Shown here in pieces: positions 3,504-25,577 of a DNA stretch of 37,096 nt. The DNA is taken from the NCBI GenBank assembly GCA_011364925.1, contig RDOA01000039.1, positions 1 to 37,096 of the forward strand. The letters are read 5' to 3'. Both the position numbers and the translations under genes were made by a program. The stretch's first letter is position 1, and each line of letters opens with the position of its first letter. The notes under the pieces were generated by a model, which worked only from the letters and a program-made list of their open reading frames with translations, had not been told where the DNA came from and did not search any database. This stretch comes from Promethearchaeota archaeon. Its GTDB lineage: Archaea; Asgardarchaeota; Lokiarchaeia; Sigyniarchaeales; SOKP01.

Positions 3504-3628
3504 GAAAATATACCCTCGATCGTTCAAAAAGGATTTTAATAATGTCTTTTCGGTTGTTTTAGTAGTTTTAAATAAAAAAAAATTTAATAGAATATATATT
3601 TTACATGTTATACTGATTTGTAATATAA

Positions 3629-6746: not shown

Positions 6747-6834
6747 TTATTTTACAATTTTCTTTTTATTCAACTTCTTTTCAATTTGAAATAACTTATT
6801 AGGTATTTATTTTAAAAAAGAAAGGGAAGTAAGT

Positions 6835-6883
6835 AGTGTTCAATTGGAGAGCTTCATAATAAAGCACTCTAATAATAAACACC
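6835..6883 (-). other. Conserved 3' stem-loop of mini-gene copy 1
   Basis: Minus strand: GGTGTT...AGAGTGCTTT-ATTAT-GAAGCTCT...AACACT, then TTCCCTTTCTTTTTT. Confidence 0.6.
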
Positions 6884-6886
6884 AAA

Positions 6887-6916
6887 TTACGGATTTATAG
6901 AACCTTGACCGGGCAA
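6887..6916 (-). CDS. Nonapeptide micro-ORF copy 1 (MPGQGSINP, TTG start)
   Basis: AGGTGAT-GGTT-TTG CCC GGT CAA GGT TCT ATA AAT CCG TAA; same length and SD spacing as the three other copies. Confidence 0.7.
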   Translation of the reverse strand: MPGQGSINP

Positions 6917-7012
6917 AACCATCACCTTTTATATAAATTCGATTTACATTGTCGTAAATCCTAAGAAAAGTTAGAGTTTTTTCATCCTTTTCATTTTATT
7001 TTATTCATTACT

Positions 7013-7026
7013 TATTTAAACTTCGA
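7013..7026 (-). promoter_or_regulatory. Putative promoter of mini-gene copy 1
   Basis: Minus strand TCG-AAG-TTTAAATA, shared with the other copies. Confidence 0.55.
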
Positions 7027-7188
7027 TGTTTCTTTTTAAATCAATTAAAATAAGGGAGTAAAATTCTAAATTAAAATATCAGAAAACTTTATATCTAATT
7101 AAATTTAAATTATCTAGGTGAAACTGCCGAACTCTAAATATATCTGTAAACTAACCAGAGTTAAATACGAGAATTATTAAGAACAATT

Positions 7189-8397
7189 CTAGTTTAAGTC
7201 AGAAGGTAGAATTGGATTAACAAGCAAACTTTTATATTCTTTTATAGATGGAATTTTGCCATATTTTTTTCTTAAAATGTTTGTTCCGAGATAATATAAA
7301 AAAGCATTTTTCGAGTAAACAGGATTTAATATCCTTTCAATTTCGTTTTTTAATTGTTCTTCGCTAAAAAGACCAATACCTTTTCCAAATTGAACGAGTT
7401 CCTCCTCGTTATATTTGTCTACTAAAGCGTGATAGGCAAAATTGTACCAAAAAACAGAAATTTTAGCTTTAATTTCGTCTTGTAATATCAATATTTCAAG
7501 AGGGACTTCTTTTGATATATCTGGACAAAATTCTCTTAAAGAAATTTCTGCAGATTCAATGTTTGAAAAGAGAATTGAATTGGCTAATTTCGCAATTCCT
7601 TCTGAAATAATCATCTGAGGAGAATGGATAATCAATATTGATTGCTCAAAGTGATTTAACTCGTGATATAACATTTGTTCTTTTACAGAGAATTCCGTGT
7701 GATGCCCTGGATATCCTTCATGACTAGCAGCTGATAGAAATGCAGTCCAATACATGTCATATTTTGGGTTGAGTTCAATTCTGGATTTGTAATTACCTTG
7801 ATACCAGTTATAGAAAGACCACTTTAAATTGTAATTTGATTGTTCGACCAAATCAATAGAAATCTGCTCTTCTTTAGGTAAGAGATTGGGGAGTATTTTT
7901 TTAGTCTGTTTTCTCACAATGTTCAATGCTTTTTGAAACATAGTGAAGACTTGCGCTTCGGGAACTCTTCGCGTCAGTCTTAAATTAGCCATATGCTCTG
8001 TTATGTTCCCAGGACCTTCATATGCTTCATTAATTTCCTCTTTTAAGTTTTTTAACTCTATCTCATAAGCTGGATCTAAATTTACATCATAAAGTTTTAA
8101 AAATTGGTCTTTTATTGAATAATCGATTCCATTTAACATTTCTATCGATGTTTTCATAGAGGTTATAATTTTTTCAAGGAACCGTTCTCGTTTAAGGTCA
8201 TAACCTTGAGATTGTAAATGTTGTATCAAAGCTCTTGAATCTTTTAATAATCTAATAGGTGCCATTGGAAACTCACTTTCTACGATTTTTCTTAGATTTT
8301 CTGGTCCATAATAAAAATCAACATAACCTTTAATATGCTTATTAATCCGGAGTGCTAATAGTAAATAATCTTCTTCAAATTTGGAAAGTTTTATCAT
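7189..8397 (-). CDS. DUF885-like putative zinc metallopeptidase, paralog A
   Basis: HEGYPGHHTE motif, downstream SEGIA (third ligand), N-terminal YLLLALR...GYVDFYYGP. Confidence 0.75.
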   Translation of the reverse strand: MIKLSKFEEDYLLLALRINKHIKGYVDFYYGPENLRKIVESEFPMAPIRLLKDSRALIQHLQSQGYDLKRERFLEKIITSMKTSIEMLNGIDYSIKDQFLKLYDVNLDPAYEIELKNLKEEINEAYEGPGNITEHMANLRLTRRVPEAQVFTMFQKALNIVRKQTKKILPNLLPKEEQISIDLVEQSNYNLKWSFYNWYQGNYKSRIELNPKYDMYWTAFLSAASHEGYPGHHTEFSVKEQMLYHELNHFEQSILIIHSPQMIISEGIAKLANSILFSNIESAEISLREFCPDISKEVPLEILILQDEIKAKISVFWYNFAYHALVDKYNEEELVQFGKGIGLFSEEQLKNEIERILNPVYSKNAFLYYLGTNILRKKYGKIPSIKEYKSLLVNPILPSDLN

Positions 8398-8584
8398 ATT
8401 GATTTAACATAATAATTATTTTATAAGGAGTTGATCTAAAAATCAACAATTTTAAGAAAATTTAAATGAATCTTTTTTTTACAAATTAATTTAACTTTAA
8501 AATAAACATTTAATTCAATGTTTAATACATCTAATTCAAAATCTCTAATTTTAATTTCTCACAATAACTAAAAGGTGTTTTAAA

Positions 8585-9391
8585 ATGTCGGAAGATAAAT
8601 TTTTAAAAGGAAAGGTAGCTCTAATAACCGGCGCTGGTAGTGGATTTGGCCAAAAAATGGCTATCGCATATGCCGTGAAAGGAGCCGATTTGGTTTTAAA
8701 CGATATTAACGAAGATGGTCTCGAAGAGACACGTAATTTAGTTCTGGAACAATACAATTCTAAAATTCTCTTAGTTAAAGCTGATGTTTCAAACTCCAAA
8801 GAAGTTGAAGAAATGGCTAAAAAGACATTTGAAACTTTTGATAATGTATTTGTGTTAGTGAATAATGCTGGAATAGACGGTGGACTTTATACTGCTTTGA
8901 AAGCCAAAGAGTCTGTATACGATAAAGTGTTTGCCGTTAATGTTAAAGGTCCGTTGAACGTTACTAAAGCGTTCTTTCGGAATATGAAGCGACAGAAGCA
9001 GTTCCAACCAATAGCTGGTAAAATTATAAACATTGCTTCAGTTGCGGGAACTCCAAATGGTCATAATCCGATGCTCGGAATTTATAGCGCAAGTAAAGCG
9101 GCATTAATAGCGTTTACGAAACTATGGGCTCTTGAATTAGGAAAAAGCAACATAACTGTTAACGCTATAAGTCCTGGTGTCTTTCTTACGCCTATCTATA
9201 ATAACGATCCTAAATTAATTCGCCAATTTCTTGAGACAAGAAATGTAAAAATACCAATTGATAGGATCGGTGAGGCAGAATGGGTCGCTGACTTAGCAGT
9301 GTTCTTAGCATCTTCAACAGCAGATTACATCACTGGACAAAACTTCATTATAGACGGTGGAATGAGTATATCAGTCAACAAGCTAAATTAA
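8585..9391 (+). CDS. Short-chain dehydrogenase/reductase (FabG-like)
   Basis: TGAGSGFG, NNAG, YSASK, NAISPG, ITGQ...DGG. Confidence 0.92.
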   Translation: MSEDKFLKGKVALITGAGSGFGQKMAIAYAVKGADLVLNDINEDGLEETRNLVLEQYNSKILLVKADVSNSKEVEEMAKKTFETFDNVFVLVNNAGIDGGLYTALKAKESVYDKVFAVNVKGPLNVTKAFFRNMKRQKQFQPIAGKIINIASVAGTPNGHNPMLGIYSASKAALIAFTKLWALELGKSNITVNAISPGVFLTPIYNNDPKLIRQFLETRNVKIPIDRIGEAEWVADLAVFLASSTADYITGQNFIIDGGMSISVNKLN

Positions 9392-9447
9392 TCTTATGAT
9401 ATCTTTTATTATTCTATAACATTTCTAAAAAAAGAAAAGAAAGTAAG

Positions 9448-9493
9448 TGGTAGGCTTATACGGAGCATTCCTATGCTCTTATAAGTAGTACCA
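9448..9493 (-). other. Conserved 3' stem-loop of mini-gene copy 2
   Basis: TGGTA/TACCA, CTTATA/TATAAG, GAGCAT-AGGA-ATGCTC, followed by a U-rich tract. Confidence 0.7.
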
Positions 9494-9495
9494 AA

Positions 9496-9525
9496 TTACG
9501 GACAAATACCATTTTCGCCTGGCAT
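9496..9525 (-). CDS. Nonapeptide micro-ORF copy 2 (MPGENGICP)
   Basis: GGAGTGAT-TAAA-ATG CCA GGC GAA AAT GGT ATT TGT CCG TAA. Confidence 0.75.
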   Translation of the reverse strand: MPGENGICP

Positions 9526-9633
9526 TTTAATCACTCCATTAGATTTTAAAAATATAAATATATCTATCTAAAATATGAGATTTTTGAACTCAGTTTCCAG
9601 TTTTTTCTCACTTATCTTGTGTATTAAATTGAT

Positions 9634-9650
9634 TATTTAAAATCCGAAAA
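9634..9650 (-). promoter_or_regulatory. Putative promoter of mini-gene copy 2
   Basis: Minus strand TTTTCG-GAT-TTTAAATA. Confidence 0.6.
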
Positions 9651-9704
9651 TATTTGAAAAAAGATACTCTTGATGTTTTTTCTTAAAAAAGAAAGAGAAA
9701 TAAG

Positions 9705-9749
9705 GGTGTATATATTAAGAGTCTCAATATAGATTACTCTTATAACACC
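9705..9749 (-). other. Conserved 3' stem-loop of mini-gene copy 3
   Basis: GGTGT/ACACC and TAAGAGT/ACTCTTA stems, followed by a U-rich tract. Confidence 0.65.
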
Positions 9750-9752
9750 GAA

Positions 9753-9782
9753 TTAAGGCAATGTACCATTGTCTCCTGGCAA
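9753..9782 (-). CDS. Nonapeptide micro-ORF copy 3 (MPGDNGTLP, TTG start)
   Basis: GGATTGAT-TAAT-TTG CCA GGA GAC AAT GGT ACA TTG CCT TAA. Confidence 0.72.
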   Translation of the reverse strand: MPGDNGTLP

Positions 9783-9887
9783 ATTAATCAATCCTTCTAA
9801 ATTTTGAGAAATTTCTTTTCTGTCTTAAATGAATTTAAATATTCTATAGTGTTTTTTTTTACAGTCATTAATATGATTCAAAATAAA

Positions 9888-9904
9888 TATTTAAAATACG
9901 AAAA
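9888..9904 (-). promoter_or_regulatory. Putative promoter of mini-gene copy 3
   Basis: Minus strand TTTTCG-TAT-TTTAAATA. Confidence 0.6.
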
Positions 9905-10077
9905 TGTAGTGTGAGAAAGTTATACAATTTTTCACTATATTTAAATTCCAGTATTAATAGAAGGATGAAAAATTTTGAAATTTTACATTAAATCAGAGAG
10001 TAAAGTTGGATTAATACATAAATTAATAAAATTTTTTAATGAGTATTTTTTAGAGTAAAAAAAAGAAAGGAAAATAA

Positions 10078-10130
10078 TTGTTTAGCTTAAGAAGAGCATT
10101 CAGACAAATAGCTCTCATAAGCAGCACCAA
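10078..10130 (-). other. Conserved 3' stem-loop of mini-gene copy 4
   Basis: GCTTA/TAAGC and AGAGC/GCTCT stems, followed by a U-rich tract. Confidence 0.65.
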
Positions 10131-10131
10131 T

Positions 10132-10161
10132 TTAGGGGTTAGTACCAGGTTCTCCAGGCAT
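10132..10161 (-). CDS. Nonapeptide micro-ORF copy 4 (MPGEPGTNP)
   Basis: GGAGTGAT-TAAA-ATG CCT GGA GAA CCT GGT ACT AAC CCC TAA. Confidence 0.75.
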   Translation of the reverse strand: MPGEPGTNP

Positions 10162-10273
10162 TTTAATCACTCCTTTCATATATTAAAAATCATGAATCTA
10201 TTCTTCTCTTTTATATATTGTTTAGTGTAGGCATTCCTGTTTTTTCTTCACTAATAGTAAGATTAAAATTGAT

Positions 10274-10290
10274 TATTTAAACTACGAAAA
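10274..10290 (-). promoter_or_regulatory. Putative promoter of mini-gene copy 4
   Basis: Minus strand TTTTCG-TAG-TTTAAATA. Confidence 0.6.
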
Positions 10291-10342: not shown

Positions 10343-11554
10343 TTACAACAAATCAGAGGGTAAGATCGGTTTAATCAAAAGATTTCTAAAATTATTAGCT
10401 GATGGAAATTCCCCGTATTTATTTTTGATCATATTCATTCCGAGATTATATGTAAAAACATTTTTCGAGTAGACAGGATCTTTAAGGGCTCTAATTTGGT
10501 TTACAAGTAGATCTTCATTAAAGAGCTCATGACTTTTGCCGTAATTAATTAATTTAGCATCAGTGTAATTATCAATGAGTGCATGATATGCAAAATTATA
10601 CCAAAAAAGTGAAATCTTGTGTTTTACGCTATATTGTCCAATCATAGTTTCAATCGAATCTTCATCAAAAATATTTGGACAAAACTCATTCAATCCAATT
10701 TCTACCTGATCTCTATAAGAAAAGAGCACATTTACAGCAATATCTGCTATACCTTCACTTATTATTAATTTAGGAGAATTTAGGAGCAAAATTGAGTGTT
10801 CAAATTGATTTAATTCTCTACACAATTTTAATTCTTTAACGACAAACTCTGTGTGGTGACCTGGATACCCCTCATGAGCAGAATGCATAAGTAAATTAGT
10901 CCAATACATATGAAATCTCGGATTAACTTCGATTCGACTCTTATAATTACCTAAGTACCAATCATAACAAGTCCATTTTATACTGTCCTTGTCTGTTTCT
11001 TCTGTTATTTCTAAAAATATTTCTTCATTTTCAGGTAAGAGATTGCTAAATAATTCCTTTGTGCGTTTTTCTACGATATCGAGTGCTTTTTTAAAAAATT
11101 CATAAACTTTTTCTTCGGGAACTCTTCTTTTAATTCTTAATTTTTTAATGCGTTCTTCAAGATTTCCATTACTACCGTGAGCATCTGCATATTCTCTTTT
11201 TAAGTTATCCAGTTCTGTTTCATTCGCTGGTTGTAATGTAACATCATAAATCTTTAAAAATTGATTTTCAATAGAAATATTGGAACCGTTTAAAATTTCA
11301 ATAGAGGTTTTCATAGCTATTAATAATTTCTTTAGATAGCACTCGCGTTCTTTATCATAACCTTGTGATCCTAATTGTTTAATTAAAGAAATTGAATCTT
11401 TTAACAATTTACTCGGCGATGTAAGAGGTTCAGTTTGAACAATTTGACTAAGTTTCTCTGGTCCATAATAGAAATCAATATAACCCTTAAAATGTCTATT
11501 AATTCTCAAGGCCAATAGTAGAAATTCTTCCCCAAAACATGATAGTTTTACCAT
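10343..11554 (-). CDS. DUF885-like putative zinc metallopeptidase, paralog B
   Basis: HEGYPGHHTE and SEGIA; colinear with 7189..8397 from the N-terminus to the C-terminal PILPSDL. Confidence 0.75.
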   Translation of the reverse strand: MVKLSCFGEEFLLLALRINRHFKGYIDFYYGPEKLSQIVQTEPLTSPSKLLKDSISLIKQLGSQGYDKERECYLKKLLIAMKTSIEILNGSNISIENQFLKIYDVTLQPANETELDNLKREYADAHGSNGNLEERIKKLRIKRRVPEEKVYEFFKKALDIVEKRTKELFSNLLPENEEIFLEITEETDKDSIKWTCYDWYLGNYKSRIEVNPRFHMYWTNLLMHSAHEGYPGHHTEFVVKELKLCRELNQFEHSILLLNSPKLIISEGIADIAVNVLFSYRDQVEIGLNEFCPNIFDEDSIETMIGQYSVKHKISLFWYNFAYHALIDNYTDAKLINYGKSHELFNEDLLVNQIRALKDPVYSKNVFTYNLGMNMIKNKYGEFPSANNFRNLLIKPILPSDLL

Positions 11555-17659: not shown

Positions 17660-20600
17660 TTGACGCATATAAAGAAAATCTCGATGACCGGATTCAAATC
17701 ATTTGGTGATCGTACCGTTACTTTGCGGCTCTCCTCAGGGTTTACATGTATCGTTGGTCCTAACGGGGCTGGTAAATCAAATATTATTGATGCGTTAACA
17801 TTCGCATTAGGTCGACTAAGTAAAAAAACGATGAGAGCCAAAAGTCTCGAAGATTTGATTTTTGCTGGCTCTCGAGGTAAAAATCCTTCAAATAGGGCCT
17901 CGGTTACTTTATACTTCGATAATTCAGATAAAGTATTTCCAGGTGGAACTGATACTTTTGAAGTAACTCGGACAATTCAAAGAGGTGGGGGCGGAGGTTA
18001 TAAAATGAATGGAAAGAATGCTACACGACAACAGATCCTTAATGCCCTCGCAGCTGCAAACATTGATCCTGACGGTAGCAACCAATTCGTTTTGCAAGGG
18101 AAAATTGTTGAGATGACTCACATGAATCCCGAATCTCGTAGAATTTTTATTGAAGAGCTTATAGGACTTCAGAAGTACGACGAAATGAAGGATGCAACAA
18201 TGAAGGAGTTAGAAAAAGCAGAACGAGACCTCGGGCAATTTGAAGCTATTTTTAAAGAGGTGTCAGCCCAATTAAAGAAAGTGGAAAAGGAAAAGAACGA
18301 TGCTTTAGCTTGGAAGGAATTAGATGAAAAGATTAAACTATATAATGCTCAATTAATTGCTTTGAAGATTGAAAAATTAAGAAAAGAAGAAAATGAATTA
18401 GAAGCAAAAATAGAAGAAACTAACGCAGCTATAGAAGAATTACAAGAAAAAATAACAAGACAAGAAGAAATCTTAAAACAAGAATCATTAGTAATGGATA
18501 ATATTCAGAAAACTATATCTGAAAAAGAAAGAGAGAGAGAATTAATCAATGAAGGCATTACTCAACTTAAAACGCAACAATCCTCAAATCAAACCTCGTT
18601 AAACATAGCAAATAAATCAATTGATAAGATTTCACAAGAAATAAAAACACTAGAAAATCTTCAAATGGTTCTCGAAGAAGGCCAAACCTATGATTCTTTA
18701 ATCGAATCAGAATTAAAAATTGTTACTGATACGGAGAATCAAATTGAGGGCGCTAAAGGTGAAATAGAAAGTAAGCAACAGAAACAAGCTGAAATCGATG
18801 TTAACATAAAAAATAACAGCGATACTCAATCGGGTTATAAAGGAGAGATTTCTACAATCAAACAGAATATCTCTTCGAATAAAGCTCAAATAAAAGTTCT
18901 AAAAGAAAATATAAAAAAAAATGAAGAGAAGAAAAAGAAGTTAGAAATAGAACTTAGTAGGTTAAAAGGGGAATCTGAAAGCGTTGAAGAAGCTGTAAAA
19001 AATACAAATCAGGAAGCTGAATTAATAAGAAAAGAAATTAGCAATTTAAATATAAATATCTCAAAAGAAAACGATAATCAACAAGAATTAGAAAAATTAA
19101 TAAGCGGTTTAAGAGAAGAAAACAATCTTCTAAATTCAAAAATAGCAGATCTTAACTCTACATTATCCTCTCTAAATACTGAAATCTCTATGAATACAAA
19201 TAGAATAGAAAAGTTAAAATCTAGTAAAGTAGAAACAGAGAATAAGATTAAAGAATTGAGTAAAGGAAAAGATACAGAAGAAGCTTTAAAAGAATTATTA
19301 AAAGAAAGAGAATCCTTCGTTCATGATATTAATAAGTTTAAAACTCAAATAAAAGAAGAAGATTCTAATTATAGAAAAAATGAACAAGAATTAGAATTAT
19401 TACTAATGAAACAAGATTCTGTTGAATCAGAAATCAATGATAATAAGACAAAAATAGATAATATCAATACCAAATTAAAATTATTAAAAAGAGAACTTAC
19501 AAATCTTGAAAGAGAAAAACGCGATCTAGATTTAAAATCGTCCACATTAAGCGAAAGTTTAACAACGGCAGAAAATGAATCACAAAAACTTAATACGAAA
19601 AAACAAAACATTCAAAGACGGATGGGAGAACTTACTACGGAAAAAGATAATTTAACCGTTAAAATCGAAAATACAGAAAAAGAATATAATCAAAATACGG
19701 AAGATATTACAGGAATTCTTCAGATTTTGAACATGTTGACTCAGAACATCAATATATCCGTTGAATCGATAAAAAGTAACATCCAACAATCAAACGCTGA
19801 GGCTATTGAAACATCTGCAACCAATTTTAAGCAATTCGTCCTTGACATAGTCGATATCATGAAAACCGTCGAAGACGTTTCTGCGGAAGCTGAAGCAGAA
19901 GAAAAAACCGAAACTTCTGAGGTATCAGAAACCCTCAAATCAATTCTTCAAACTTTAACGCTATTTACAGAGAATGTCGATACAACGATTGATCAATTAA
20001 TAGATGGCGTAAAAGAATCCGCAGACATAGAGATACAACAATCTACTTCCACATTTGACAGTTTCGTTCAAGATTTAATGGAAATATTAGAAAACGTCTA
20101 CCTCTCTTTAAGGAAGTTAACGATGTCAAAATCTCAAGAGTTGTATAAACAGCTTGAAGAAATCACAGAAAATATCAATTCTCAGAATAATGACTTGAAC
20201 ATCATTGATCAAGATTTAACACGAATAAATACCCAAAACAAACACGATTCAGAAGATTTGGCTACGAACGCAAGGAGATTAGAAGAAGTTATTAAAAGAA
20301 TTAGTGAGATAAATGAAAAAGTTGAAAAATCTGAAAGCGAAATTGAACAGAGAAATAAGTTGATAATTGAAAGACAAAAAGAAAATTTCAAGGCTGATAT
20401 CGAAAGTTTTAAACAAAAAAAAGAAGAATATTGGAATACAGTCTCTAAAATTAAAGAAGAAATGGATATAAAACAAAAAGGTTTAGACGATTTACAAATA
20501 AAACTGCAAGAACTTCAAGGAATTCAGACTTTTTACGAGAAAATATTAGAGATTGAAAAGAACGTACAAGAGTTAAGTGCTGCTATTGACGATAAGAAAA

Positions 20601-22126
20601 ATGTAATAGTCAACACAGAAGAAAACATCAAAAAGATTAAACTTGAACAAGATGGTCTAAATACAGAGATTGAGAGTAAAATAACGGAAAAAAATAATTT
20701 TTGGGAAAATACTGAAAAACTACGGGCACAAATCGACGAACAAAATAAGAAACTAGAAGTTACTATGGATAAATTAAGAGCTCTCGAAAATGTTATGATG
20801 ATAATCAATTCAATTGATGAACTATCGAAAGAAAATGTCGAAGCAAATACAAGTATTAGCCAATCCAATAATGATATAGAAAACCTAAACTCTCAAGTGG
20901 AAGAAAAACAAAAGAAAGTTGATGAAGTAGAGGTAATAATAGACTCTTTGAGAGAAGAAAAAGACAAAGAGTTAGAGGCACAAAAGAAAGCACAAAAAGA
21001 GTTAAATAAACTAAATAAAGACCTTCAAAAATCTCAATCAAAACTGAACGAATTGAATAAAAATAAGGAAAGAGAACAAAAAATTATTTCGCTAAATGAT
21101 GATATAAAAACCACTGAAAAACAAATCGAGTCCATATTAAAAGATATCGAGAAAATTGAACTTGAACTGAAACAAGAAGATGCTAAAAAGAACATCAAAC
21201 AAGAAGAAATCAATAAAGAAATTCAAGGAAAGGATTTATCGTGGAAAAAGCAGAAGAACTATCAAAAACAAATCAATGATCTAAAAGCAGATCACTCGAT
21301 GGAAAATTCTAAATTAAATAACTTTGAATCTAAAAAGATCATCACAACTGACCAAATCGAAACCCTATATCAACGATCTAAAGATTATGGCGCTTTACCC
21401 CCAGTTACTGACGATTTGTCTGAATCAGGACTGCAATCAGATATCTCTACTGCTGATAACAAGAAAAAAGCCCTAGAACCCGTTAATCTAAAGGCTATTA
21501 AGCAATATGATACCGTAAAAGAACGATTTGATGAAATTGATATGAGAAGACAAACGATACAGAGGGAAAGAAAATCAATCCTTGACGCAATCGAAAAAAT
21601 CGAGCTGGAAAAAACTCGGACGTTCATGAAAGCGTATCACGAAATCAATCGAGAATTTGCCCGTCTATTCCAAAAACTCTCCCCTGGAGGCTCTGCTAAA
21701 ATGATTCTAGATCGCCCAGACAAGCCGTTTGAGGGTGGCGTAAGTATCGAAGCTCGACCCCGTGGAAAAAAAATCAGCAGCCTCGAAATCCTCAGTGGAG
21801 GAGAGAAAACGCTCGTGGCTCTCTCGTTCATCTTCTCGGTGGAAGAGTTTATGCCAAGCCCTTTTTATATTTTAGACGAGATCGATGCGGCCCTCGATGG
21901 TCCCAACGTCCACAGAGTTTCCATGCTCTTAAAGGACTTTGCGCATCAAGCGCAATTTTTAGTGATTAGTCATCGCGAGGAGAATATCGTGAACGCGGAT
22001 CGGATTTATGGGGTGACGATGCAGCAGTCGGGCATTACGGACATATTTAGCGTGGACTTAGAGGAGGAGGCGAAGCGGTTATTGGAGTTACCGGACGTAG
22101 AGCCTCAGGTGGGGGACAATATTTAA
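17660..22126 (+). CDS. smc: Chromosome segregation ATPase SMC, unusually long and with no recognisable hinge
   Basis: GFKSF, GPNGAGKSN, Q-loop LQG, LSGGE, LDEIDAALD, ISH; long coiled coils; scpA and scpB nearby. Confidence 0.9.
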   Translation: MTHIKKISMTGFKSFGDRTVTLRLSSGFTCIVGPNGAGKSNIIDALTFALGRLSKKTMRAKSLEDLIFAGSRGKNPSNRASVTLYFDNSDKVFPGGTDTFEVTRTIQRGGGGGYKMNGKNATRQQILNALAAANIDPDGSNQFVLQGKIVEMTHMNPESRRIFIEELIGLQKYDEMKDATMKELEKAERDLGQFEAIFKEVSAQLKKVEKEKNDALAWKELDEKIKLYNAQLIALKIEKLRKEENELEAKIEETNAAIEELQEKITRQEEILKQESLVMDNIQKTISEKERERELINEGITQLKTQQSSNQTSLNIANKSIDKISQEIKTLENLQMVLEEGQTYDSLIESELKIVTDTENQIEGAKGEIESKQQKQAEIDVNIKNNSDTQSGYKGEISTIKQNISSNKAQIKVLKENIKKNEEKKKKLEIELSRLKGESESVEEAVKNTNQEAELIRKEISNLNINISKENDNQQELEKLISGLREENNLLNSKIADLNSTLSSLNTEISMNTNRIEKLKSSKVETENKIKELSKGKDTEEALKELLKERESFVHDINKFKTQIKEEDSNYRKNEQELELLLMKQDSVESEINDNKTKIDNINTKLKLLKRELTNLEREKRDLDLKSSTLSESLTTAENESQKLNTKKQNIQRRMGELTTEKDNLTVKIENTEKEYNQNTEDITGILQILNMLTQNINISVESIKSNIQQSNAEAIETSATNFKQFVLDIVDIMKTVEDVSAEAEAEEKTETSEVSETLKSILQTLTLFTENVDTTIDQLIDGVKESADIEIQQSTSTFDSFVQDLMEILENVYLSLRKLTMSKSQELYKQLEEITENINSQNNDLNIIDQDLTRINTQNKHDSEDLATNARRLEEVIKRISEINEKVEKSESEIEQRNKLIIERQKENFKADIESFKQKKEEYWNTVSKIKEEMDIKQKGLDDLQIKLQELQGIQTFYEKILEIEKNVQELSAAIDDKKNVIVNTEENIKKIKLEQDGLNTEIESKITEKNNFWENTEKLRAQIDEQNKKLEVTMDKLRALENVMMIINSIDELSKENVEANTSISQSNNDIENLNSQVEEKQKKVDEVEVIIDSLREEKDKELEAQKKAQKELNKLNKDLQKSQSKLNELNKNKEREQKIISLNDDIKTTEKQIESILKDIEKIELELKQEDAKKNIKQEEINKEIQGKDLSWKKQKNYQKQINDLKADHSMENSKLNNFESKKIITTDQIETLYQRSKDYGALPPVTDDLSESGLQSDISTADNKKKALEPVNLKAIKQYDTVKERFDEIDMRRQTIQRERKSILDAIEKIELEKTRTFMKAYHEINREFARLFQKLSPGGSAKMILDRPDKPFEGGVSIEARPRGKKISSLEILSGGEKTLVALSFIFSVEEFMPSPFYILDEIDAALDGPNVHRVSMLLKDFAHQAQFLVISHREENIVNADRIYGVTMQQSGITDIFSVDLEEEAKRLLELPDVEPQVGDNI

Positions 22127-22275
22127 TTCTTTTTTTTTTTAATTTCTCCATATTTTACATATGCTTTTGATAGAAAAGTATAAAAGAAAAATAAAATTCC
22201 TTGCATTAATTTTTTTCGAAACTCAATTTTAAATGTAAGAACTATAAACTAATAGGAAAAAAGAGGGATGTTACT

Positions 22276-22476
22276 ATGGCAAATGTGCTAAGATTAATCG
22301 CATCGATAATTTTAATGAGCGTTGGATTTCTGATTTTATTTTTAAGCGTGATATTTGGAGTTACGCTTGGCTATAATTATTCGACGCCGGTAATGGGGGG
22401 AGTGATAGGCTTGTTAGGCCTTAGTTTGGGAGTTGTAGGGATTCTATTCTTGATAGATGCGATCAAATCGGATTAA
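22276..22476 (+). CDS. Small two-TM membrane protein
   Basis: 66 aa, two hydrophobic helices, GAGGG upstream of the ATG. Confidence 0.6.
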   Translation: MANVLRLIASIILMSVGFLILFLSVIFGVTLGYNYSTPVMGGVIGLLGLSLGVVGILFLIDAIKSD

Positions 22477-22664
22477 GAATAGCAATAATGGATATAATAT
22501 ATATAAAAATCTTTTTTTTTATTTCGGTAAGTTAATTTCTAATAGGTTTTTTTTGGTCACTTCTAAGATAAAAGTACCCTCCTCTTATCGAAAAGCTCAA
22601 ATTGTAAATTTAGTCAAAGAATTTAAAAGAAAAAATAAGGATTCATAAAAGTATAATTTAACAT

Positions 22665-23498
22665 CTATAAGGCTTTCTTATAAAAATTGTACCAGTGATT
22701 AACTGATGATACTTTTAAATCTGGTCTATCTAGCTCGAATGATGCAGTTATTTCGACCTTTTCGGGGGCAATTCCATCAGAAATAGCACTTTTTATGGTT
22801 GCGCGAAAATCTTTAAAAAATTGGATGTATTCATCTAATGCATTATAACCTTTTAATACTTTACCGTGACCAGGGATTATAAGGTCCGGTTTCATTTCTT
22901 TCATCATTTCGAGTGCCTTGATGTATTGTTCTGGATTACAAGTAGCGTCTCCCGCAAAAGGAAACATGTTTGTAAAAATTAAATCCCCCGCAAAAAGAAC
23001 TTTTTCATAAGGAAAATATACAATACTCGAGCCTGAAGTATGCCCTCCAGTATGAATCGCTTCTATATAGAGGTCCTCATCCCTAATTATTAATTTGTTA
23101 TTGAAAGCTACATCTGGGAGTTCAAATACCACACCCTCAGCCAAGGGATCTGCTTTTATGAATTCTGATACTCTTTGTTCATATGCTTGCTTAATAGAAT
23201 TGGATTGCATATTTTTAAGCATTTGTTCACTACAAAAACTCACGATGTCTTTGAACGCACCAATTCCAAAAATATGATCTGCATGATAGTGAGTAAAGAT
23301 AAGAAATTTTACTGATAAGTTAAAATGATTCTCAAGATTCTTGCGAAATAATTGGGCAGTTTTTGCATAAATTGTAGAATCAATAGCAATTACAAAATTT
23401 CTTAAACTCACTGCTCCAACATTTCCCCTGCCTAATCCCGTTGTATTTGCAACCGTATGAGACGAAACTTCCTCTACATCGTATATTAAGTCCGTCAT
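22665..23498 (-). CDS. Metallo-beta-lactamase-fold hydrolase (cyclase-like)
   Basis: THYHADH, GHT, FAGD, IPGHG. Confidence 0.9.
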   Translation of the reverse strand: MTDLIYDVEEVSSHTVANTTGLGRGNVGAVSLRNFVIAIDSTIYAKTAQLFRKNLENHFNLSVKFLIFTHYHADHIFGIGAFKDIVSFCSEQMLKNMQSNSIKQAYEQRVSEFIKADPLAEGVVFELPDVAFNNKLIIRDEDLYIEAIHTGGHTSGSSIVYFPYEKVLFAGDLIFTNMFPFAGDATCNPEQYIKALEMMKEMKPDLIIPGHGKVLKGYNALDEYIQFFKDFRATIKSAISDGIAPEKVEITASFELDRPDLKVSSVNHWYNFYKKAL

Positions 23499-23686
23499 AA
23501 TATCACTTTGATTTTATGGTATAAAACATTTAGTTGCTTAAGACATTTATTTGGATAATCTTTAAAAAAGCGATTCTTGAGTAAAAAAGAATTTTAAGGA
23601 ATATTAATATCATCATTCTACTTAAATTAATTAAGGTAAAATCCGGTATTATTATTAAATAGTGAAATAAAATCTAACGGTGAAAA

Positions 23687-24697
23687 ATCGTATCAGAAGA
23701 TAAGGATGTAGAGAAAAAACATAACTTTACTGAATGGACAGTAAAAAACTTGAGAGATTTTGCCAGTCGTAATAACATTAAACTTCCTGTCAAATCTAAG
23801 AAGAACGAAATCGTTAAGTTTTTAGAACAAGTAACTTCTCATCCAGAATTTATTGATAGAACCATAGAAGATGAGGATTCAGACCAGGAATTAGAAGTGG
23901 AATTAATTGCTGGTGAGGAAGAAGATCCCGCTTTGCTACACAAAGAAAAGATGGAACTCAAATTTTGGCAAAAGCCTCCATATTCTAGTTTACTGGATCC
24001 AGAAGTGGCAAAAGAGTCTAATGTCGCTTTTTATGACCTCTCATCGTTAGTAGATAAATTTTTTAATAATATGCTCCACGAAGAATTAATCAATTACAAG
24101 ATTTCAGGTATAGCACTAAAAACTTCAGCAGTGCTACATCATTACAAAATATCAAGCATAATTCACGAGGAAGAACAAATACAAAAAAAAGAGGAATTAG
24201 AACGCTTTAGAGAAAAGCATGGTAGATCAATACCCAAAACCTTACCACAACCCATTCAACCTAAAATGTTGATATCTACAAAGGAAGAATTATTTGAAGC
24301 AATGAGGTCTGCTATAATAGAAACAATGCAGAACAAAGAGAAATTAAAGCGTAGAAGAATGAGAAGAGAAGAACTGAAAGAACAAAAACTTCAATTTGAA
24401 TCTAAAGCACATCTACCAAAAGAATTGTTAAAACATATTAGTGGACGGGAACAAACTGTAGAAGAGTTACATGAATCATGGTACAACCGAATCAAATCTA
24501 CAATCCAATTAGAAGATAAAGAAACATCTTTTTTTGATATGGCAGAGCTAATAAATAACGAAGAAGAGAGCGAGATCGGTAAGAAGTTCGCTTTCGTTCG
24601 CATGTTTTTAGCGTTAATGTTCCTTTCAACAGGTAATAAACTAGAATTATTCCAAGAAGAGGATTTTAAAGATTTTTCAATAAATTTAAAAAAATAA
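23687..24697 (+). CDS. scpA: Kleisin ScpA with an N-terminal SAP/HeH-like extension (start uncertain; ORF-track start is TTG 23750)
   Basis: DLSSLVDKF...INYKISGIAL..SA.L...K kleisin N-domain; VRMFLALMFL..GNKLELFQEEDF C-terminal wHTH; lies before scpB. Confidence 0.75.
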   Translation: MVSEDKDVEKKHNFTEWTVKNLRDFASRNNIKLPVKSKKNEIVKFLEQVTSHPEFIDRTIEDEDSDQELEVELIAGEEEDPALLHKEKMELKFWQKPPYSSLLDPEVAKESNVAFYDLSSLVDKFFNNMLHEELINYKISGIALKTSAVLHHYKISSIIHEEEQIQKKEELERFREKHGRSIPKTLPQPIQPKMLISTKEELFEAMRSAIIETMQNKEKLKRRRMRREELKEQKLQFESKAHLPKELLKHISGREQTVEELHESWYNRIKSTIQLEDKETSFFDMAELINNEEESEIGKKFAFVRMFLALMFLSTGNKLELFQEEDFKDFSINLKK

Positions 24698-24725
24698 CGA
24701 AATTTACTGAATTTGGCGATAAAAT

Positions 24726-25577
24726 TTGAACGAAAATCACGAAAAGGAACCAGAAGATCAATTGGAAATTAAAGCCAATGAAGAAACACCGTTGGATGGA
24801 GCCGTTGATGACCTTCCTCAAGAGGAAGGCAATTTAGAAGGGAGTGAGACACTTTCAGAGACTGAAAAAATAATTGAAGAAGAGGAAGAGGATATCGAAG
24901 GAATAATTGAAGAAGAAATTGCTATTGAGGAAGAAGAATCATTGAGTTCCGACTCGTTAGAAGAAGAAGAAGGTGAAAACGATACTGAATCTGTTGGAGA
25001 TGAAGAAGTGGAACCTCAAGTACTTCAGGAACTCACAAAAGAAGACTTAGAATTACAACTAAAAATTCTAAGGAGAAATTTAATAGAAGGTGCTCTTTAT
25101 GCAGCTGGTAGACCTTTAGATGTGGAAGAATTATCAACGAAATTAGAAATCCCTAAAAAAGAAGTCGAAGAACTCGTAAGAGTTGTTGCTTTTGACTATT
25201 TAGAGCGTGAAGGTGCTTTGATTGTTGCCCAAATTGGAGAAAAGTATCAAATGCAGCTTAGACCTGAACTTACCGAGACGGTTTCTAAATTTGCAAAAGG
25301 TGGCGCAATCGCAGAACGCTATTTAAGAACGCTTACTCTTATTGCGTTAAAGCAGCCTATTTTAAAGTCCACAATCATTAAATTAAGAGGAACTGGTGCT
25401 TACGAGCATATAAAATATTTATTAGATAACGATCTAATTTCAGCGGAAAAAAAGGGAAGATCTGCTGAATTAACTACTACAGATAAATACTCCGACATGT
25501 TTGGATTGCCTAAAAATAAGCAAGAATTGAAAAGAATGATGATTTCCCAGTTAGGATTGGGGGAAAATAACGAATAA
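24726..25577 (+). CDS. scpB: SMC-Scp complex subunit ScpB with a long acidic N-terminal tail
   Basis: IEGALYAAGRPL, LRTLTLIALKQPI, RGTGAYEHI, TT.KY...FGL. Confidence 0.9.
   Translation: MNENHEKEPEDQLEIKANEETPLDGAVDDLPQEEGNLEGSETLSETEKIIEEEEEDIEGIIEEEIAIEEEESLSSDSLEEEEGENDTESVGDEEVEPQVLQELTKEDLELQLKILRRNLIEGALYAAGRPLDVEELSTKLEIPKKEVEELVRVVAFDYLEREGALIVAQIGEKYQMQLRPELTETVSKFAKGGAIAERYLRTLTLIALKQPILKSTIIKLRGTGAYEHIKYLLDNDLISAEKKGRSAELTTTDKYSDMFGLPKNKQELKRMMISQLGLGENNE

Follow-up and report, generated by a model that had tools for sequence, protein, structure and literature searches.

Nine-codon micro-genes beside DUF885-like peptidases in a Lokiarchaeial genome: putative leaderless peptides of a candidate signalling system

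Micro-genes and peptidases at the locus

The window analysed here is a stretch of 37,096 nucleotides (nt) from a Promethearchaeota archaeon (contig RDOA01000039.1, positions 1 to 37,096). It contains four micro-genes, which lie in two cassettes with genes for DUF885-like zinc peptidases (Table 1). Judged by their sequence, the four open reading frames (ORFs) are almost certainly real, separately transcribed genes, from which leaderless peptides would be translated. The best reading of their function, which has about an even chance of being right, is that they encode signal peptides and that the peptidase is an accessory enzyme clearing them.

The ORFs had been proposed from the letters of the DNA alone, and all four were found again with nine codons and a TAA stop each. 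They are located on the minus strand, which the sequence-only reading had left unstated. The starts (TTG, ATG, TTG and ATG), the codons listed for positions 2, 3 and 9, and the Shine–Dalgarno (SD)-like word 4 nt upstream were confirmed. The 4-nt spacing, described as constant, holds for all four window genes and is common among homologues, but it is not fixed there. The sequence-only reading of the ORFs mentioned neither the peptidases next to them nor the locus with regulator and transporter described below.

In each unit, a hairpin lies directly 3' of the stop codon and is followed by a T-run; the hairpin z-scores in Table 1 were computed against base shuffles. Of 114 homologous upstream regions, 92 contain a TATA-like box, compared with 8% of shuffles. 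No ORF of the window with up to 16 codons other than these four has the form start-Pro-Gly...Pro-stop. The 3.9-Mb genome has 11 instances of the nine-codon pattern start-Pro-Gly-x5-Pro-stop, versus none in a 4 Mb order-3 Markov simulation. None of the Rfam covariance models matches the micro-gene units.

Five further micro-genes were seen in this genome (C42:39368-39397, C42:39239-39268, C44:4678-4707, C44:19034-19063 and C101:81163-81192). None follows a peptidase gene, one lies upstream of a peptidase gene, and two have unusual or lost start codons.

Table 1. Features of the two cassettes, with positions counted from the first letter of the window.
Feature	Position (nt)	Strand	Remarks
Micro-gene 1	6887..6916	minus	9 codons + TAA, TTG start; Met-Pro-Gly-x5-Pro, Gly at position 5, not 6
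Micro-gene 2	9496..9525	minus	ATG start
Micro-gene 3	9753..9782	minus	TTG start
Micro-gene 4	10132..10161	minus	ATG start
SD-like site, gene 1	6921..6927	minus	
SD-like sites, genes 2, 3 and 4	9530-9537, 9787-9794, 10166-10173	minus	
TATA-like box, gene 1	7013..7021	minus	105 nt upstream
TATA-like box, gene 2	9634..9642	minus	117 nt upstream
TATA-like box, gene 3	9888..9896	minus	114 nt upstream
TATA-like box, gene 4	10274..10282	minus	121 nt upstream
3' hairpin (6834-6884) and pyrimidine/T-run, gene 1	6814..6884	minus	-17.4 kcal/mol, z -4.6
3' hairpin (9448-9493) and T-run, gene 2	9427..9493	minus	z -4.0
3' hairpin (9705-9749) and T-run, gene 3	9684..9749	minus	z -3.6
3' hairpin (10080-10127) and T-run, gene 4	10058..10127	minus	z -2.6
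402-aa DUF885-like zinc peptidase, paralogue A	7189..8397	minus	His/Glu metal motif 226-233, Glu266; precedes gene 1
403-aa DUF885-like zinc peptidase, paralogue B	10343..11554	minus	precedes genes 4, 3 and 2

Selection on the peptide

Drawn from 87 loci and this genome, the sample has 86 distinct ORFs, which specify 72 peptides. When ORFs are chosen by pattern, the counts at codons 2, 3 and 9 are circular, and two non-circular definitions were therefore used. The first accepts any ORF, whatever its length, that is led by an SD-like site and lies no more than 450 nt downstream of the enzyme gene next to it. It yielded 55 ORFs of nine codons, 52 of them Pro-terminal, and a unit of this kind was present in 50 of 65 loci versus 1.25% of 3,037 control gene ends. 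The second sets the units by their flanks only, namely an SD-like site and a hairpin 30 nt apart. Here, 47 nine-codon ORFs were obtained, with Pro9 in 47, Pro2 in 46, Gly3 in 46 and Gly6 in 32; the remaining units were three background hits and three variants with a 1-nt deletion that gain one residue. Including these deletion variants, the flank-defined unit is an ORF in all 50 of 50 true cases. Length variants of the micro-genes differ by whole codons, and Pro9 is encoded by all four codons among homologues.

Since the all-pairs ratio of replacement to silent divergence (pN/pS) was saturated (0.73 overall), 33 disjoint close pairs were used instead, picked on their flanks (89% identical). 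In these pairs, all 24 changes at codons 2, 3 and 9 are silent, and none replaces a residue. For codons 4 to 8, pS is 0.22 and pN is 0.31, corresponding to a pN/pS of 1.42; the core of the peptide is free or diversifying. Selection on the peptide, as claimed from the codon usage of the four window genes, thus stands for the ends but not for the core, which is without purifying selection. The further claim that selection acts on the peptide rather than on DNA or RNA does not stand in this form, as the TATA-like box and the 3' hairpin are also conserved and the constraint falls on peptide and nucleic acid alike.

It had also been suggested that removal of Met leaves Pro-capped peptides. This is plausible for the four peptides of the window, but position 2 is Phe, Arg, Tyr, Asn, His or Cys in some homologues. 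The peptides of a small enzyme subclade (L024, L030, L040 and L081) have 8 or 9 codons and start with Met-Phe-His; in these, Met is probably retained. Strict Pro/Gly symmetry as a defining feature was weakened by Phe2/His3 variants, and a looser pattern without Gly3 was swamped by chance matches. Lone matches in other Asgard families (e.g. L219, L221, L224 and L227) lie mostly inside or opposite long genes and were treated as chance.

The adjacent peptidases

Paralogues A and B are 55% identical, and no hydrophobic segment is present in either. His227, Glu228, His233, His234, Glu267 and Tyr369 are invariant (paralogue B numbering). The Pfam DUF885 model (PF05960) gives 15.4 and 18.7 bits, below its gathering cut-off of 32.4, and a PDB sequence search returned nothing useful, so that the placement comes from fold searches only. 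The enzyme model, with a predicted local distance difference test score (pLDDT) of 92.9, matches DUF885 structures at Z 18-21.8 (PDB 3iuk, 3o0y and 3u24), the best match being 3iuk (Z 21.8, root-mean-square deviation 4.0, 351 aligned). Other fold matches are M32 carboxypeptidase (Z 15.1), oligoendopeptidase F (13.0), Dcp (12.2) and ACE (11.8). M32, M3, Dcp and ACE-type enzymes are closed-channel enzymes acting on short peptides. From fold and metal ligands, the cassette enzymes are predicted to be active cytoplasmic oligopeptidases of the DUF885/M32/ACE fold. No description of a DUF885 substrate was found in the papers searched, and literature searches on M32 specificity and on zinc macrocyclases were without returns.

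Most homologues of the adjacent protein with a named source come from Promethearchaeota or Lokiarchaeota. All five paralogues in this genome precede a nine-codon ORF, and for one of them, 39% identical, the peptide ends in Pro-Glu. Cassette 1 (paralogue A and gene 1) lies between an ALS-like and an SDR gene. These two genes are direct neighbours in most relatives, with seven such loci seen, so that the cassette represents an insertion in this genome.

Enzyme–peptide coupling across genomes

When 198 enzymes were placed in a tree, those with a linked peptide fell into one Lokiarchaeial clade of 100 sequences (support 0.97), with identities down to 30%. A micro-gene is present for 90 of the 93 assessable members, versus three chance-looking calls among 91 enzymes outside the clade. 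In one subclade, the micro-gene is in tandem with the enzyme gene and almost always has 9 codons. In another, it is inverted, i.e. convergent to the enzyme gene, and has 9-12 codons, mostly with a Met-Pro start and a hydrophobic-Pro end. Altogether, Pro is the last residue before the stop in 107 of 112 cassette peptides, and up to three micro-genes (putative precursors) accompany one enzyme. The peptide type partly follows the enzyme subclade: the enzyme of gene 1 falls (support 0.99) among enzymes for which the first peptide is, like that of gene 1, of the Gly5/Asn8 type. Clade-specific enzyme changes include Tyr217, Gln307, Tyr323, loss of a conserved Thr-Asp-x-Pro loop, and Tyr to Asn at 365, the latter in the tandem clade only. 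In the enzyme encoded at 10343-11554, residues 193, 212-217, 307, 323 and 365 distinguish peptide-linked from peptide-free enzymes, which makes them candidate specificity residues.

The peptidase family occurs in 36 of 135 genomes of the Lokiarchaeial family. Its distribution is patchy, with 0-10 paralogues per genome and varied insertion sites. Apart from housekeeping genes of the local surroundings, seen at no more than 9 of 82 loci, no other gene recurs beside the cassettes. No comparable micro-gene lies within 650 nt downstream in about 80 homologues from bacteria and 16 from basal Asgard archaea. A short DUF885-like family of about 400 amino acids (L088-L167; at least 597 loci) is widespread in Chloroflexota, Deinococcota and Actinomycetota and has no micro-genes in its vicinity. 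A single micro-gene at the SDR site of G004 (L213:1053-1082) carries an in-frame TGA at codon 6 and has no peptidase beside it, possibly as a result of decay after enzyme loss.

The regulator locus

Another micro-gene of the genome that holds the window (C70:47600-47629) is followed on the same strand by a gene for a major facilitator superfamily (MFS) transporter, while a divergent gene of 1,204 amino acids lies on its other side. This giant gene is found in 118 of the 135 genomes of the Lokiarchaeial family and was not found in the other families searched. Of 26 giant-gene loci, 22 have a similar micro-gene as a neighbour, which often encodes one or two residues after the last Pro. The core locus of the peptide family is composed of micro-gene, regulator of about 1,200 amino acids and MFS transporter. 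Given the frequencies of regulator and peptidase, the enzyme is an accessory.

The giant protein has no match in Pfam or NCBIfam, and the ESM Atlas gave a weak AsnC-type lead only (0.79). It was folded for residues 1-470 (pLDDT 77.8). Residues ~207-367 match Lrp/AsnC proteins and residues 14-204 match the catalytic domains of M1 gluzincins (aminopeptidases), at middling Z values of 7.4-8.4; no RRNPP entries are listed among the fold matches of the modelled part. The helix of the metal motif reads Arg95-Glu96-x-Tyr98 and lacks a His pair. The model suggests an Lrp-like regulator with a zinc-less gluzincin-like N-terminal domain, followed by Lrp/AsnC-like units.

A 277-aa frame in G003 (C98:8189-8977) matches only the zinc-less N-terminal domain and is a possible stand-alone peptide-binding decoy. 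In G164, a ThiF-family gene (L222:3813-4808) lies directly upstream of the micro-gene (3587-3616) that precedes the giant regulator; it could be a housekeeping gene or encode an MccB-like peptide adenylase. Some peptides in G016, G020, G369 and G002, mostly regulator-linked, are present in two identical or near-identical copies at different sites.

Cassette and regulator-locus peptides share the same anatomy, and the last four residues of the gene 2 peptide are those of the peptide at C70. Regulator-linked and cassette peptides from the same genome are more alike than those from different genomes, with a best core identity of 2.3 versus 1.6 of 5 positions (p 0.008 for core identity, 0.008-0.02 for the test as a whole; n=10, with kin that are not independent). 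The interval from SDR to the gene for an L15e-like ribosomal protein (rpl15e) contains a peptidase cassette here and in other relatives, and the regulator, the MFS gene and two micro-genes in G220. From genome to genome, different modules of the system recur in the slot beside the L15e-like gene (window:9391-11667; L286, L253, L256, L263, L189 and L199). As for a shared operator, only the TATA-like box was found in common between cassette and regulator-locus promoters.

Proposed mechanism and alternatives

Methionine aminopeptidases remove Met ahead of Pro, and Met would be lost from the peptides in this way. The leaderless peptide would then be exported by the MFS transporter and bound by the dead-peptidase domain of the regulator, with altered transcription as the outcome. 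The window holds two accessory cassettes, which pair extra peptide variants with a predicted cytoplasmic oligopeptidase. Such variants may broaden or jam signalling between strains. The dedicated enzyme would cut and clear the peptides, and this would either reset the signal or protect the producing cell from variants active on the regulators of other strains. Pro at both ends should confer resistance to general exopeptidases, and for this reason cutting and clearance of the peptides are the most likely task of the dedicated enzyme. It is likely that the peptides are ligands of the regulator family, and equally likely that they are substrates of the adjacent enzyme. That the enzyme clears them is judged a little less probable than not, and maturation by the enzyme is clearly less probable than clearance.

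Several points weigh against signalling with clearance. The Z values of the regulator fold matches are middling. A peptide and its destroyer in one cytoplasm would need export or timing, and export by the MFS protein is proposed from gene adjacency. None of the cassette peptides has exactly the sequence of a regulator-linked one. In G340 (one contig, 90% complete), a peptidase and peptide cassette is present, but neither the regulator nor this MFS transporter was found with the queries used. Finally, read from the tree, the coupling of enzyme and peptide arose once and was then kept through duplications and an inversion, so that it does not stand for many independent events.

The alternative that survives best, although it is improbable, is a module resembling those for ribosomally synthesised and post-translationally modified peptides (RiPPs). 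In this scenario, the enzyme matures the peptide by C-terminal trimming or head-to-tail cyclisation to give diverse cyclic hepta- or octapeptides. Cyclisation would draw on both terminal Pro residues: one X-Pro or Pro-X bond would be broken and another of equal kind formed. Fixed ends, the hypervariable core and as many as three precursors per enzyme are consistent with this, as are the follower-like one or two residues after Pro in some homologues and the clade-specific enzyme changes such as Tyr217, Gln307, Tyr323 and Tyr to Asn at 365. AlbE/AlbF provide a precedent for a zinc protease macrocyclase, the mechanism of which is unresolved (PMC12731061). Nevertheless, 107 of 112 cassette peptides lack a follower to drive transpeptidation, and no further tailoring or export gene recurs by the cassettes. 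Many genomes have regulator and peptide while no such enzyme was found, so that it is not an obligatory maturase.

A peptide that keeps the adjacent peptidase off, as inhibitor or antitoxin in a toxin–antitoxin or defence cassette, is more doubtful still. It would fit the patchy spread, the varying number of paralogues and the varied insertion sites, and also the partial tracking of enzyme subclade by peptide type. A hydrophobic-Pro C-terminus resembles ACE-inhibitory peptides, and such an end coincides here with an ACE-like enzyme fold. An inhibitor is, however, hard to reconcile with the fast-changing core, with several different peptides per enzyme, with the presence of the peptide family at regulator loci of genomes where the enzyme was not found, and with about 90 related enzymes that have no micro-gene within 650 nt downstream. 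No PADLOC model (anti-phage or toxin–antitoxin) was matched.

Stalling at Pro-stop is known from TnaC-type peptides, and the sequence-only reading had raised an action of the invariant Pro-stop on ribosome termination. A leader or arrest peptide controlling a downstream gene in cis would agree with the near-invariant Pro-stop of the cassettes and with the position of the micro-gene upstream of a co-oriented gene at the MFS locus, but this is very unlikely. Genes 1 and 2 of the window face the 3' ends of convergent genes, genes 3 and 4 face other micro-genes with TATA boxes of their own, and no co-oriented regulated gene lies downstream, unlike in TnaC-type systems. Furthermore, the micro-gene of the second clade is convergent to the enzyme gene, and many regulator-linked homologues carry residues after Pro, often one or two. 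The suggestion is thus not supported. Least probable of all is a non-coding RNA or DNA repeat with an incidental ORF: the conserved promoter and hairpin and the unconstrained codons 4-8 would allow it, but it is contradicted by the silent changes at codons 2, 3 and 9, the intact frames of the flank-defined units, the whole-codon length changes and the absence of Rfam matches.

Comparison with known systems

The proposed signalling system has its closest bacterial analogue in Rgg/SHP, an RRNPP system of Firmicutes with export by PptAB and degradation by PepO (PMC5167397). Common to both are a tiny peptide gene by a cytoplasmic regulator (at 22 of 26 regulator loci, none of them in the window itself) and, by analogy, a mature signal of about 8 residues, a transporter and, as an accessory, a zinc peptidase by which the signal could be limited. 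In contrast to RRNPP peptides, those described here have no leader or pro-region, as the ORFs have 8-12 codons with in-frame stops upstream. The regulator, compared over residues 1-470, resembles a dead gluzincin fused to Lrp units and not a helix-turn-helix–tetratricopeptide repeat protein. The transporter is of the MFS and not the ABC type, the host is an Asgard archaeon, and the Lokiarchaeial peptidase, unlike PepO, has a DUF885 fold and is gene-linked to its own peptide variants. The giant protein shares with Lrp/AsnC a unit resembling a winged helix-turn-helix and RAM domain (residues ~207-367), but here it follows a gluzincin-like domain without zinc within one fused chain of 1,204 residues and is linked to peptide genes.

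The cassette enzymes resemble DUF885 proteins (3iuk, 3o0y and 3u24) and M32/M3/M2 gluzincins in overall fold and in the His/Glu metal motif with a distal Glu. They differ by their length of about 400 amino acids, a predicted cytoplasmic location and a score under the Pfam cut-off (18.7 versus 32.4 bits).

Microcin C MccA and the fungal MSDIN/POPB system are leaderless or short-precursor RiPPs. Shared with microcin C, subtilosin and MSDIN/POPB are a very short gene with its own promoter and a 3' hairpin, fixed ends with Pro and a variable core, and several precursors per enzyme. Unlike in RiPPs, there is no leader beyond Met or Met-Pro, and most copies are without a follower. The cassette contains no radical SAM enzyme, adenylase or prolyl oligopeptidase, and the cassette enzyme was not found in many peptide-bearing genomes. 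Beside the micro-genes only the peptidase recurs, which may or may not act as a tailoring enzyme.

Significance

Elsewhere in the window (17660-25577), a 1,488-aa SMC-like gene with ScpA- and ScpB-like genes nearby was recognised by eye from the translations; it is unrelated to the micro-genes.

Archaeal cell–cell signalling is little known, and the signal of Haloferax is an unidentified small molecule (PMC12240190). No description of such micro-genes in Asgard archaea was found in the literature, in which subscription papers were poorly covered. Genes of 30 bases fall under the length cut-offs of standard gene calling, and the family is therefore likely to be unannotated.

The Lokiarchaeial family may, with a probability put slightly under even, run gene-encoded peptide communication from parts unrelated to the bacterial ones: leaderless Pro-ended peptides of 8-12 residues, an MFS protein for export, a receptor of the dead-peptidase/Lrp type, and mobile cassettes of peptidase and peptide through which strain-specific signals are added, jammed or erased. 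If true, the peptides would be the first substrate for DUF885-fold enzymes. Peptide, transporter, receptor and peptidase would constitute a gene-defined set in the lineage closest to eukaryotes, which can be tested without culturing the host. As far as function can be judged from these genes, the findings suggest that close relatives of eukaryotes have a system of peptide signalling that is as yet undescribed.

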